The notes: generated by a model from the letters alone, not told the origin. 32,000 nucleotides of DNA from Geobacter sulfurreducens PCA (GCF_000007985.2 NC_002939.5:180001-212000), one strand, 5' to 3'; shown: positions 14,936 to 18,120, counted from the first letter of the stretch. A program made the numbers and translations.

Positions 14936-15865
14936 CTATGGCCTGATCTCGACCACCGTCCCGTTGGGCGCCGCCTCTGCAATTTCCTCAATCTCTTCGT
15001 CGGTTACGGCGATGCACCCCTGGGTCCAGTCCACCTCGGCGTGCGCGGCGCCGACCTGCGAGAGCCCGTTCTTGATGCCGTGAATCATGATGTCCCCGCC
15101 CGGAGAGACTCCCATCTCCCGTGCCCGCTTTTTATCTTTTTCGTTCGGATAGGAGATGCGCAGGGACAGGTGATAGCGGCTGCCCTTGTTCCTCCCCTCG
15201 ATGACGTAGGACCCCTCCGGGGTCTTGTTGTCGCCCTGCCGTTCCTTGGGGCCCACCGGGTTGCCCCCCAGGGCTACCTTGTAGGTCCTGATCACCTCGC
15301 CCATTGAGAGCAGCGACAGCCTGCGGTCTTTCTTTTCAATCAGGATTTTGTCCACCGCCCCCTTCCGGGTGGCAATGGCAAATACCTTTTGCTCGAGGAT
15401 TTTAATCGTTTCCCGCAGGGCGGCGATGTCCTTGTTTCTGTCGTCGAGATCCTGCCTGAGCGCTTCGATGCGGGCCTGCTGCGCGGCAATGGTGCCGTCC
15501 TTGAGCACGACGGTGTTGATGCCGAAGATCATCCGCTCGCTGTCCTGCCGGTACCTGCTCTCCGGGAACTCCCTGACCAGCTGTTCGAAGCACTCCAGGG
15601 CTTTCTGGTAATCCTTGTGTTCATTCCTGGGATAGGCATGGATGAATCCCTTTTCGAACAGCACCCGGTCTTTCGCGGCGGGATGGGTTTCGCCAATACG
15701 GGTATATGCGTCGAGGGAGGCGCTGTAGTTCCCCTGGGAGAACAGGTCGTTCGCCTCCTGGAAGATCGACGCGGCCCGATGGTGGCTGCAGCCGCAGAGA
15801 AGCAGCATGCAGCAGATGCAGACCGGGAAAAAGCGCGCAGCCATCCTGTGTCGTGTGAATGTCAT
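14936..15865 (-). CDS. YafK/DpaA-like L,D-transpeptidase-fold lipoprotein with N-terminal TPR-like and coiled-coil regions
   Basis: Lipobox LLLCGCS. Catalytic-domain motifs are GDNKTPEGSYVI, YHLSLRISYPNEKDKKRA, GGDIMIHG and WTQGCIAVTDEEIEEI (COG3034/YafK pattern). Confidence 0.75.
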   Translation of the reverse strand: MTFTRHRMAARFFPVCICCMLLLCGCSHHRAASIFQEANDLFSQGNYSASLDAYTRIGETHPAAKDRVLFEKGFIHAYPRNEHKDYQKALECFEQLVREFPESRYRQDSERMIFGINTVVLKDGTIAAQQARIEALRQDLDDRNKDIAALRETIKILEQKVFAIATRKGAVDKILIEKKDRRLSLLSMGEVIRTYKVALGGNPVGPKERQGDNKTPEGSYVIEGRNKGSRYHLSLRISYPNEKDKKRAREMGVSPGGDIMIHGIKNGLSQVGAAHAEVDWTQGCIAVTDEEIEEIAEAAPNGTVVEIRP

Positions 15866-15961
15866 AGATGCCGTTACTCCATGGCGGAAGCATCAGGAAT
15901 ATGATGTGCCGGGAACCGGCCGTCCCGGCAGGTGTGAGTGGCTCGAACGGGTTCAGCCGGC

Positions 15962-16006
15962 GGGCAGCGACGAGACGGGGATTTCGGCCTCGGCACGTCG
16001 CTGCCC
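15962..16006 (-). other. Strong hairpin just downstream of the lpp-like gene (intra-operon attenuator or stabiliser candidate)
   Basis: An 11-bp stem, GGGCAGCGACG (15962-15972) paired with CGTCGCTGCCC (15996-16006). No U-tract follows on the minus strand. Confidence 0.35.
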
Positions 16007-16020
16007 GGAGCGGAGAGACG

Positions 16021-16323
16021 CTATTTCCTCATGGATTTCTGGAACACGGCATCGGCCTTTTTCGCCTTTTCATCGGCGAGCCGTTCCCGTTCCTGGGCGG
16101 CCTTTTCGGCGCTTTCGGCACGGGTGGTGGCGTCCTGCGCCTCCAGTTTTGCCGCGTCTGCCGCGGCTTTGGCGGCCTGCGCTTCCTGCAGCGCCTGTTC
16201 GATCTTCGCGTCGAGCAGGCGCTGGTCGGCCTGTACCTGCTCCATTTCCCTGGATGTCGCGCAGCCGGCCAAGGCAGCGGCGAGAATCAGCGTCACCGAG
16301 ATTACCGATAGTCTTGTCTTCAT
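16021..16323 (-). CDS. Lpp-like alanine-zipper lipoprotein with a C-terminal ...MRK
   Basis: ATG 16323 has AGGAGGT upstream. MKTRLSVISVTLILAAALAGC provides the lipobox. The rest is an A/E/K/Q-rich helical repeat that ends in FQKSMRK-stop. E. coli Lpp ends in YRK. Confidence 0.7.
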   Translation of the reverse strand: MKTRLSVISVTLILAAALAGCATSREMEQVQADQRLLDAKIEQALQEAQAAKAAADAAKLEAQDATTRAESAEKAAQERERLADEKAKKADAVFQKSMRK

Positions 16324-16421
16324 AACACATACCTCCTGTTTGTGTAGTGTACTCCGAGGGTTGCCGAGGGACGTCCCGTTGTCCCGCATCACCTCCCTTC
16401 GGTTCGATAGGGCGGGGCAGG

Positions 16422-17729
16422 TCAGATGGTCCTGCCGGGTTCGATCACGATGCCGTCTATGTCAAGGTCGATTTTCAACCGTTTGGCCGCATCCCTGGCC
16501 TTGCCGTCGTCACTGAACGGGCCGGCGATGATCCGGTAGCTCGAATCCTTCGACAGCACCCGGGCCGGGATCGGCGGCCCCTGATGGTTGATGATGGCGG
16601 CCATCCTCCGGGCTTCCATTTCGTCGCGCATGTCGCCGACCATGACATACCATGCGTCCAGCTTGAGCGCCGGCAGCTCCGGCCTGCCATACAGCGCTGC
16701 CGGGTGCTCGATTCTCAGGGGCGAGGCCGCCTCTTGCTCCGCTCCCGGCCTCAGCTCCAGAATAGGGACGGGAATCCCCCGGGCCTCGGCCTGGACTTGT
16801 TTGATCTTGTCCCAGTCAAGCGTTCGCGCCGATGCGCTTTCAAAGGATTTCAGCTTCGCATGGATCCGGGCCAGTTCACTGGTGCCCGAATCCTCCAGGG
16901 GGGTGTGGGCTTCCATGTAGAGCACGCCGTCGCGCTGGCCGATGAGATAGGGCTGATTGACTATGAGCACCGGGGTGTTGACCGCCGTATCCCGGAACAG
17001 CACCTCGATATGTTCCGGATAGAGCCTCATGCAGCCATTGGATGCCTTCAGGCCGATGCTGGCCGGTTTGTTGGTGCCGTGGATCAGGTAGCCCGACCTG
17101 CTCAGATAGAGCGCGTAGTCTCCCAAGGGGTTCTCCGGCCCCGGCGGTACCCGGGCAGGGAGAATGTCCCCCTTTTTCCGGTGATCTTCGGCGATGGAGG
17201 CGGGCACATACCAGGTCGGCCGGCTGGCCTTGCGCGCCACGCGTGTCGGTCCCTGGGGGGTGGGCCGCTCCTTGGTCCCGATTCCGACCGGGTAGGTCGA
17301 CACGGCCAGGGCTCCGCCGTTTTCCTTGAACTGAAAGAGCCGCATGGTGGCCAGGTTGATCACGATTCCCTTCCGGGGGGCATCCGGCAGGATGAAGTTC
17401 AGGGGCAGGGTAATGCGTTGGCCTGCCTTGGGCAGCCACACATCAACCCCCGGATTGGCTGCGCTGATGGCATTGATGCCCACGCTGAAGTGCCGCGCCA
17501 CATCCGGCAGCGTATCCCCCTCTTCGAGTTTGACCAGCCCCAGTCGGCCGATGACGTCAGTTCCCGGCGCAACCTGGAACCGGTTCCGTTCAAGTTCGCT
17601 TTCAGGGTGGACCGGTGAGAACCAGGCTTGCCGGGTGGCGGCACAGCCCGTGAGGGCAATGACGCAGATGCCCAGGACAGCGGAACGAAGCCAGTAGGCC
17701 ACGGTTGGCAGCGTAACGATTCTGCGCAT
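16422..17729 (-). CDS. L,D-transpeptidase (YkuD/ErfK/YbiS/YcfS family) with LysM and C-terminal SPOR domains; lipoprotein signal
   Basis: Signal and lipobox VIALTGCAA. LysM-like GDTLPDVARHFSVGINAISAANPGV. Catalytic YLIHGTNKPASIGLKASNGCMRLYPEHIEVLF. SPOR-like YVMVGDMRDEMEARRMAAII...YRIIAGPFSDDGKARDAAKRL. Confidence 0.85.
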   Translation of the reverse strand: MRRIVTLPTVAYWLRSAVLGICVIALTGCAATRQAWFSPVHPESELERNRFQVAPGTDVIGRLGLVKLEEGDTLPDVARHFSVGINAISAANPGVDVWLPKAGQRITLPLNFILPDAPRKGIVINLATMRLFQFKENGGALAVSTYPVGIGTKERPTPQGPTRVARKASRPTWYVPASIAEDHRKKGDILPARVPPGPENPLGDYALYLSRSGYLIHGTNKPASIGLKASNGCMRLYPEHIEVLFRDTAVNTPVLIVNQPYLIGQRDGVLYMEAHTPLEDSGTSELARIHAKLKSFESASARTLDWDKIKQVQAEARGIPVPILELRPGAEQEAASPLRIEHPAALYGRPELPALKLDAWYVMVGDMRDEMEARRMAAIINHQGPPIPARVLSKDSSYRIIAGPFSDDGKARDAAKRLKIDLDIDGIVIEPGRTI

Positions 17730-17756: not shown

Positions 17757-17870
17757 TGAAAATAAACAAGCCGGGGCCGAATATTCTGTGATAGTTCGGC
17801 AACCCGGCTGTCTCGGTGAGACCCTGTAGGCTTTCCGCCCCATCCTCGCGGATGGTTTAGTATTATCGTT
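17757..17870 (-). promoter_or_regulatory. GEMM-I-type cyclic-dinucleotide riboswitch, proximal copy (aptamer plus intrinsic terminator)
   Basis: The minus-strand RNA reads ACUAAACCAUCCGCGAGGAUGGGGCGGAAAGCCUACAGGGUCUCACCGAGACAGCCGGGUUGCCGAA. It matches the GEMM-I pattern: a GNRA-capped hairpin, G(C/G)AAAGCC, and CAGCCGGGUUGCCGA. The 3' aptamer strand can instead pair with UUCGGCCCCGGCU, which is followed by UUGUUUAUUUU. Confidence 0.8.
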
Positions 17871-17957
17871 TATCACCAGCAGTTGTCGTGCCGTGTTCGT
17901 TGTCGATGGGAACCGGCACGATCCGGTGCCTGTTCGGGCGCACCTCTCACTGACTCG

Positions 17958-18068
17958 CGCAACAAAAAAGCCGGGGCCGATATCCTGTGATATTTCGGCA
18001 ACCCGGCTGTCTCGGTGAGACCCTGTAGGCTTTCCGCCCCATTCTCGCGAATGGTTGAGTATTGTCGT
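17958..18068 (-). promoter_or_regulatory. GEMM-I-type cyclic-dinucleotide riboswitch, distal copy (aptamer plus intrinsic terminator)
   Basis: This is about 90% identical to the proximal copy: ACUCAACCAUUCGCGAGAAUGGGGCGGAAAGCCUACAGGGUCUCACCGAGACAGCCGGGUUGCCGAAAUAUCACAGGAUAUCGGCCCCGGCUUUUUUGUU. Confidence 0.8.
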
Positions 18069-18091
18069 CTATCGCAACTGATTTTTCCGCA

Positions 18092-18120
18092 TGGATAGCA
18101 CTGCAATGAGAATTTGTCAA
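18092..18120 (-). promoter_or_regulatory. Candidate sigma70 promoter driving the tandem riboswitch leader
   Basis: On the minus strand: -35 TTGACA (18120-18115), 17-nt spacer, -10 TATCCA (18097-18092). Confidence 0.5.

Follow-up and report, generated by a model that had tools for sequence, protein, structure and literature searches.

The mechanistic archetype of a covalent link between outer membrane and peptidoglycan is the Lpp/LdtA-C/DpaA system of Escherichia coli, in which a Cys/His enzyme of the YkuD family joins the C-terminal lysine of the lipoprotein Lpp to meso-diaminopimelate, and its YkuD paralogue, in which Ala replaces the active-site Arg, removes it again (PMC8263019, PMC10653827). 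The closest characterised system to the one described here is that of Pseudomonas aeruginosa, with the lipoprotein OprI and the enzymes LdtPae2 and LdtPae3. Anchoring of OprI by LdtPae2 has been demonstrated, and the SxGChA motif of LdtPae3 was the basis for giving this enzyme a release role; in biofilm, anchoring of OprI increases (PMC10434034). In both Lpp and OprI the C-terminal lysine is the attachment residue (for OprI, PMC10434034). Here we analyse a 32,000-nt stretch of the Geobacter sulfurreducens PCA genome (the window, to which coordinates refer; genome coordinates of Hallberg et al. 2019 minus 180,002 give window coordinates). Within positions 14936-17729 it carries three minus-strand lipoprotein genes, GSU0183, GSU0182 and GSU0181, behind two GEMM-I riboswitch aptamers. 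Their products most likely form a system homologous to both of the above. From sequence comparison we consider it fairly probable (about 0.6) that together they provide an inducible tether of the attach-and-detach type from the outer membrane to peptidoglycan, whose chemistry we infer.

Parts of this picture are not new. Existing annotation calls the genes murein lipoprotein and transpeptidases, and their regulation by cyclic GMP-AMP (cGAMP) is published. An earlier reading of the same DNA (the original prediction) had missed both facts, as well as the OprI branch, characterised in Pseudomonas in 2023. In the literature, GSU0182 is named just 'murein lipoprotein', in two transcriptome tables, and a literature search on PF11839 or alanine-zipper lipoproteins gave nothing relevant. 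The three co-directional minus-strand genes of the original prediction are borne out by our check of open reading frames and by public gene calls: public G. sulfurreducens assemblies call identical genes, and the 435-amino-acid protein is unchanged on AP028967.1 and CP074693.1. Every motif that it had named is present as well (HG...SNGC in the first gene, LAGC and FQKSMRK in the second, PEGSY, HLSLRISYPN and GCIAV in the third). What is new here is that this triad of genes is conserved well beyond the gammaproteobacteria.

The OprI system and the Geobacter locus have the lipoprotein family in common (PF11839, NF040598), with a tail of Arg-Lys in OprI and of ...SMRK in GSU0182. Likewise, each has one arginine-type L,D-transpeptidase (Ldt) of the ErfK/YbiS/YcfS/YnhG lineage and one YkuD protein with Ala two residues after the catalytic Cys (Cys+2). 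Anchoring in Pseudomonas depends on conditions, another point of similarity. Unlike the OprI system, the Geobacter genes form a single operon switched by cGAMP riboswitches, the lipoprotein is longer, and both enzymes are themselves lipoproteins with extra parts, namely a SPOR domain on the Ldt and a TPR module plus long helix on the DpaA-like protein; the roles of the Geobacter proteins are predictions from sequence. The chemistry proposed here is that of the E. coli system, but the components differ. Lpp belongs to another Pfam family, PF04728 (leucine zipper), and is constitutive and extremely abundant, whereas GSU0182 is inducible. The E. coli enzymes are scattered in the genome and not lipid-anchored, whereas the Geobacter enzymes are operon-encoded and lipid-anchored.

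GSU0182 starts at an ATG behind an AGGAGG and encodes 100 amino acids; its lipobox LAGC (Cys21) leaves a mature chain of 80 residues ending in FQKSMRK. The protein scores above the curated cutoffs of Pfam Alanine_zipper PF11839 (53.1 bits, cutoff 23.1) and of the NCBIfam Lpp/OprI family NF040598 (70.8 bits, cutoff 43), and is 28% identical to E. coli Lpp across 71 residues. A word-indexed search gave 143 relatives. The best 120 of them are 57-99% identical, and the source records of several use the names 'murein lipoprotein' or 'Lpp/OprI family'. Without exception, these 120 have lysine as their last residue, in a tail F-x-x-S-M-[RK]-K; Cys21, F94, S97, M98 and K100 are invariant in the alignment. 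A profile search of 1.84 billion representatives (50% identity) found 177 clusters. A C-terminal lysine is present in 114 of the best 150, in a motif [IMLAV]F-x-K-x-M-x-K, and most of those lacking it match the N-terminal part of the profile only and look truncated. The length of the mature lipoprotein is also constrained. Only 73, 80, 87, 94 and 101 residues occur in loci L007-L086, in exact heptad steps, as a coiled-coil spacer predicts, which suggests selection on tether length in whole heptads. A further relative (locus L090, 3328-3759) reaches a mature chain of 122 residues through tandem AEEKxKx heptad repeats.

The original prediction had proposed a survey of the triad in Desulfuromonadales, and the triad proves to extend beyond that order. 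The survey took one genome per species and was seeded on the lipoprotein alone, and the open reading frames of each locus were searched with GSU0183 and GSU0181. Of 80 loci, 78 were assessable, two beginning at the lipoprotein gene. All three genes are present in 77 of the 78, and in 76 they are ordered Ldt, lipoprotein, DpaA-like. On these counts, chance clustering of the three genes is rejected. In one locus (L069, 2255-5303) the order is DpaA-like, Ldt, lipoprotein, and in a metagenome-assembled genome (MAG) of the Nitrospiraceae (L068, 2500-5400) the lipoprotein and DpaA-like genes occur with no adjacent Ldt. The reciprocal test agrees: all three loci seeded on the DpaA-like protein encode, in this order, a YkuD-SPOR protein, a small lipoprotein with an F[RQ]KSMKK end and a TPR-YkuD protein. 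Across the triad loci, [ST]NGC[MILVF]R is found in the complete Ldts and T-x-GC[IV]A in the product of the third gene. An L-x-G-C lipobox is found in every listed Ldt N-terminus not cut by a contig end, and the Ldt matches align through the SPOR region in 72 of 74 cases and through the LysM region in 71 of 74. Record titles of the loci name Geobacter, Pelobacter, Desulfuromonadales, Syntrophorhabdus, Desulfobacterales and Desulfatitalea, and 15 MAGs among them, some on contigs of 0.1-2.8 Mb, are labelled Nitrospirota or Thermodesulfovibrionia. The taxon labels are the submitters' own, and those of Actinomycetota, Betaproteobacteria, Ignavibacteria and Acidobacteriota, on short contigs, are not trusted.

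The candidate attaching enzyme, GSU0183, has 435 amino acids, a lipobox LTGC (Cys29) and the catalytic residues His217, Cys233 and Arg235, the last two within SNGCMR of the arginine type. Its YkuD (PF03734, 77.1 bits) and SPOR (45.8 bits) domains are recognised by Pfam, and a LysM match of 18.9 bits lies slightly under the cutoff of 20.9. Over the LysM-YkuD region it is 41% identical to E. coli LdtE. According to Hugonneau-Beaufet et al. 2023 (PMC10434034), anchoring and cross-linking Ldts are not separate lineages and activity is not inferable from phylogeny. What argues for an anchoring role of GSU0183 is gene context, as its gene keeps its place next to that of a lipoprotein whose terminal lysine does not vary. 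The attaching half of the original prediction, that GSU0183 would anchor GSU0182, is thus strongly supported by comparison: an arginine-type Ldt adjoins a member of the OprI/Lpp family with that lysine nearly throughout the survey. The best solved relative of GSU0183 is PDB 9tyw (243.6 bits, residues 54-325), a recent entry titled 'L,D-TPase catalytic domain-containing protein', which is far closer to it than any E. coli-type structure.

The candidate detaching enzyme, GSU0181, has 309 amino acids, a lipobox with Cys26, BamD-like/TPR matches in its N-terminal part and a YkuD domain (65.3 bits) that contains GPKERQGDNKTPEGSY, HLSLRISYPN and TQGCIAV. An AlphaFold2 model, made from a 34-sequence alignment, gives a confident TPR module and a single helix of 63 residues (106-168). 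The long helix could hold the catalytic domain off the membrane. In DpaA-like proteins the residue at Cys+2 is Ala or Asn, and in transpeptidases it is Arg (Winkle et al. 2021, PMC8263019). In DpaA itself K83, Y109 and Y131 are critical, Q86, R108 and K130 contribute, and Met133 stands where LD-carboxypeptidases hold the Trp of the D-Ala pocket (Wang et al. 2023, PMC10653827). When E. coli DpaA (NC_000913.3) is aligned with 75 members of the GSU0181 family, the equivalents of K83 and M133 are found in all 75, those of C143 and A145 (the Ala at Cys+2) in 74 each, Q86 in 69, Y109 in 67 and R108 in 46; Pgp2 has Trp at the position aligned with M133. The key residues of GSU0181 are Lys207, Gln210, Arg230, Tyr231, Met260, His262, Cys284 and Ala286. 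DpaA (8IKR) is also its best solved relative, with 38.3 bits for the single sequence and 47.3 bits for the profile, compared with profile scores of 24.8 bits for Bd1075 and 21.4 bits for Pgp2.

Taken together, the following mechanism may be proposed. Made by GacA, cGAMP binds the tandem GEMM-Ib aptamers, a step shown by others. As read in the sequence, the folded aptamer would block the terminator, and two ON switches in series should lower leakage. Judged by their lipoboxes, the three products would be lipoproteins, with the outer membrane as their probable site. Homology, the invariant lysine and synteny suggest that GSU0182 is an 80-residue alanine-zipper coiled coil, and that GSU0183, which its LysM and SPOR domains would keep at the wall, would at its Cys233/His217/Arg235 site link Lys100 of GSU0182, through the epsilon-amino group, to the meso-diaminopimelate of a stem peptide. 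In the least certain step, GSU0181, hung from the membrane on its TPR module and long helix, would hydrolyse that bond as DpaA does, making the tether dynamic.

Several findings count against this attach-and-detach tether. A literature search on Geobacter muropeptides or a wall-bound lipoprotein gave nothing relevant, and others concern GSU0181, whose detaching (amidase) role is plausible and forms the weakest link. GSU0181 has no equivalents of K130 and Y131 of DpaA; its family shows Gly at the first position and Asp or Asn at the second, and a Y131A mutant of DpaA keeps 4% residual activity (PMC10653827). DpaA is a single compact domain, whereas GSU0181 carries extra domains and, between HG and GC, a 14-residue insertion before the catalytic Cys; the second half of the catalytic domain aligns with Pgp2 and not with DpaA, and TQGCIA resembles the TRGCIA of Pgp2. 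With the NCBIfam DpaA equivalog NF040599, GSU0181 scores 37.7 bits, a tenth of the cutoff of 365, so that by the NCBI criterion it is a distant, DpaA-like relative and not a DpaA orthologue. The catalytic domain of the AlphaFold2 model has low confidence (predicted local distance difference test, 41-86), and a Foldseek search of the PDB returned only generic YkuD transpeptidases at a root-mean-square deviation of 5-9 Å, DpaA not being in the top 50; model and search cannot separate amidase, carboxypeptidase and transpeptidase. GSU0183 might then anchor GSU0182 while GSU0181 is no lipoprotein-peptidoglycan amidase. GSU0181 could instead be an LD-carboxypeptidase that turns tetrapeptide into tripeptide stems and depletes the donor stems of the Ldt, it could be a carboxypeptidase specific for glycine, or its substrates could be other proteins that are linked to the wall. 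The LD-carboxypeptidases Pgp2 (Campylobacter jejuni), Csd6 (Helicobacter pylori) and Bd1075 (Bdellovibrio bacteriovorus) share with GSU0181 the Ala at Cys+2, the meso-diaminopimelate-binding Lys and the HG-to-GC length, and DpaA-like proteins of bacteria lacking Lpp may be carboxypeptidases (Winkle et al., PMC8263019). However, these enzymes have Trp where the GSU0181 family has Met without exception. Pgp2 and Bd1075 are detectable by sequence, but DpaA exceeds both by >20 bits in the profile search, and the fact that its gene stays strictly next to that of the lipoprotein, in all orders and phyla sampled, is more readily understood if the lipoprotein is the substrate. An attaching system of this kind, with no release of the lipoprotein by GSU0181, appears unlikely. 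Of the detaching half of the original prediction, the catalytic signature and the kinship to DpaA stand, and the scores, the missing equivalents and the extra domains speak against it.

The locus might also remodel the wall with no covalent tether at all. GSU0183 would then make 3-3 cross-links in the septal wall to which SPOR directs it, GSU0181 would trim stems, and GSU0182 would be a non-covalent periplasmic spacer or a structural lipoprotein. SPOR domains bind denuded septal glycan, as would suit an enzyme of wall maturation. Among NCBIfam models, GSU0183 matches best that of a cross-linking enzyme, LdtE (186 bits), although PRK10190 (173 bits) and PRK10260 (165 bits) score nearly as high and all three values are far below the cutoffs, so that subtyping by these models is uninformative; nor does the phylogeny of Ldts predict function (PMC10434034). 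The same work shows that LdtPae2, from the lineage that contains LdtE, anchors OprI. Moreover, a terminal lysine kept in all 120 close homologues and the invariant F-x-x-S-M-x-K tail have no obvious role in a non-covalent spacer, and that lysine is the very residue by which Lpp and OprI are attached. We regard such remodelling as improbable, and the attach-and-detach tether remains our preferred explanation.

The regulation of the operon is on firmer ground. Each aptamer ends in GCCGGGUUGCCGAA. This stretch doubles as the 5′ arm of a hairpin (…UUCGGCCCCGGC), behind which comes a U-run. The distal terminator hairpin is GCCGGGUUGCCGA...UCGGCCCCGGC, then UUUUUUGUU, its 5′ arm being the 3′ strand of the aptamer; the proximal one is followed by UUGUUUAUUUU and overlaps the 3′ strand of the proximal aptamer. 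Since the 3′ strand of the aptamer and the 5′ arm of the terminator are the same, aptamer and terminator are mutually exclusive, as in an ON switch. At the ligand-specificity position both aptamers read AAUA-CU-AAACC, with A for the consensus G, the mapping being our own reading of the Rfam alignment. The position corresponds to G20 of the Vc2 aptamer; c-di-GMP aptamers have G there, and A reportedly marks the cGAMP-selective class GEMM-Ib (Kellenberger 2015; Nelson 2015).

Published expression data agree. Both aptamers of the GSU0183 leader are among the cGAMP riboswitches listed by Hallberg et al. 2019, and RNA sequencing recorded a 16-25-fold drop of all three genes on deletion of the cGAMP synthase GacA (log2 changes of -4.14 for GSU0183, -4.64 for GSU0182 and -4.42 for GSU0181). 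Given as wild type / esnD mutant / gacA mutant, the RNA values of that study are 53/96/3 for GSU0183, 175/286/7 for GSU0182, 128/219/6 for GSU0181 and 242/372/9 for the GSU0182-GSU0181 spacer; the riboswitch segments GSUR3001 (56/115/7) and GSUR3002 (47/91/7) behave alike, and the flanking genes GSU0180 and GSU0184 are flat across the strains. The original prediction of cyclic-dinucleotide control was therefore correct, and had been published before; the expression independent of the riboswitch leader that it named as counterevidence is not seen, as all three genes fall when GacA is absent. It is established that the operon depends on the riboswitch leader and that the ligand is cGAMP. The counts of GSU0183 are below those of the downstream GSU0182 and GSU0181, yet all collapse without GacA, a pattern that suggests differences in mRNA stability or processing and not a separate promoter within the operon. 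In the GEMM-Ib regulon of Geobacter (pgcA, omcAHG, omcST and others; Hallberg 2019), the aptamer class, the terminator-type ON switch and the dependence on GacA are shared with this operon, and tandem aptamers also occur upstream of omcAHG. The cargo there is cytochromes, whereas that of GSU0183-0181 is envelope architecture.

The riboswitch is less widely distributed than the genes that it controls. By Rfam, a GEMM-I aptamer lies upstream of the Ldt gene in 15 of 15 Geobacter-like loci tested, as against two of 15 distant ones. A model built from 31 aptamers was also run over all loci, and those with at least 300 nt upstream (71 loci) were counted: an aptamer is present singly in 22 and as a pair in 20, a set of three occurs in one locus, and the other 28, most of them labelled Nitrospirota, Syntrophorhabdus or Desulfobacterales, lack it. 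The aptamer-bearing loci carry labels of Geobacter, Pelobacter, Desulfuromonadales or unresolved 'delta', with the addition of L044, labelled Acidobacteriota. In the loci labelled Nitrospirota, Syntrophorhabdus or Desulfobacterales, this model found no aptamer within the counted set. Because the triad occurs with no aptamer under these distant labels, the module is older and broader than its cGAMP control. Two of the single aptamers, weak matches before the Ldt gene of L020 (50 bits) and L036 (31 bits), are doubtful, and Rfam does not report GEMM in L020 even when E values up to 1 are admitted.

Some loci show further variation in their aptamers. Three stand in series in L035 (3024-3524). The proximal aptamers of L024 (3467-3543) and L035 have G, not A, at the ligand-specificity position, and that of L008 (3334-3409) scores as the variant family RF03167 (c-di-GMP-I-GGC). 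In some species, two different dinucleotide signals may be integrated on the operon. GEMM-I-like aptamers are also found a few kb downstream of the triad on the same strand, in L050 (8180-8256) and L051 (5210-5291), where they presumably control the next gene; a listing of open reading frames past the one in L051 gave nothing interpretable.

A second RNA element lies behind the lipoprotein gene. Throughout the lineages sampled, most loci have a strong hairpin about 45-95 nt past the lipoprotein stop codon (for example, L022 2094-2137 and L047 2110-2150). Its core, GGAAGUGGCAGGG-loop-CCCUGCCACUUCC, is conserved, a second conserved segment, GGGAGC...GCUCCGG, lies upstream, and RNAalifold with 45 sequences finds 13 pairs, 8 of them with compensatory changes. 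Rfam at gathering scores has no match for this hairpin. The hairpin of G. sulfurreducens (Table 1) has another sequence and is the positional counterpart of the conserved one. In the published data, the wild-type read count of the spacer that contains it exceeds that of each of the three genes. The intergenic hairpin may be an element of mRNA stability or stoichiometry.

Upstream of the leader there is a possible sigma-70-type promoter, read from the sequence by eye. It consists of a perfect TTGACA (18120..18115), a 17-nt spacer and a weak -10 element, TATCCA (18097..18092), and lies about 20 nt upstream of the distal aptamer; a consensus promoter scan did not call this site.

Table 1. Features of the GSU0183-GSU0181 operon and its leader (window coordinates)
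Feature	Position	Strand	Basis
Possible sigma-70-type promoter	18092..18120	-	By-eye reading only; missed by consensus scan
Distal GEMM-I aptamer GSUR3002, cGAMP type	17994..18070	-	RF01051, 41.1 bits (gathering score 35)
Distal expression platform, terminator hairpin	17961..18007	-	Fold -30.2 kcal/mol, z-score -3.5
Proximal GEMM-I aptamer GSUR3001, cGAMP type	17795..17871	-	RF01051, 47.4 bits (gathering score 35)
Proximal expression platform, terminator hairpin	17759..17808	-	Fold -25.8 kcal/mol, z-score -3.75
GSU0183, lipoprotein L,D-transpeptidase, LysM-like/YkuD/SPOR	16422..17729	-	Domain models, lipobox, catalytic motif
GSU0182, Lpp/OprI-family alanine-zipper lipoprotein	16021..16323	-	Pfam, NCBIfam, homologue alignment
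11-bp hairpin GGGCAGCGACG/CGUCGCUGCCC right after GSU0182 stop	15962..16006	-	Fold
GSU0181, lipoprotein, BamD-like TPR + ~63-residue helix + DpaA/YafK-type YkuD	14936..15865	-	Domain models, alignment, AlphaFold

Two surveys that confined Braun-type tethering to a gammaproteobacterial subclade searched with PF04728 alone (one of them, PMC8263019), and therefore could not see the OprI-type family. This family, with neighbouring enzymes of the attaching and releasing types, is present in many genomes labelled Desulfobacterota or Nitrospirota, and the distribution of covalent tethers may be underestimated. A broader scenario can be offered, tentatively and as one joint proposal that we think more doubtful than the tether itself. 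Covalent tethering would be an old, operon-encoded module of Desulfobacterota and Nitrospirota, and not a late gammaproteobacterial invention; tether length would be tuned by heptads, the hairpin after the lipoprotein gene would set the ratio of tether to enzyme, and cGAMP riboswitches would have taken over the module in the Geobacter/Desulfuromonas lineage.

If this scenario is true, the envelope would be tightened or re-spaced only in the particle-associated, metal-respiring state. GSU0183-0181 is among the strongest cGAMP-dependent units in Geobacter, and the sole member of the regulon that points at envelope mechanics and not at cytochromes. As a compact operon, it is a convenient system for studies of the balance between attachment and release. 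It also provides a testable link from second-messenger signalling to envelope properties during extracellular electron transfer, for example, outer-membrane stability, vesiculation and the width of the periplasm.

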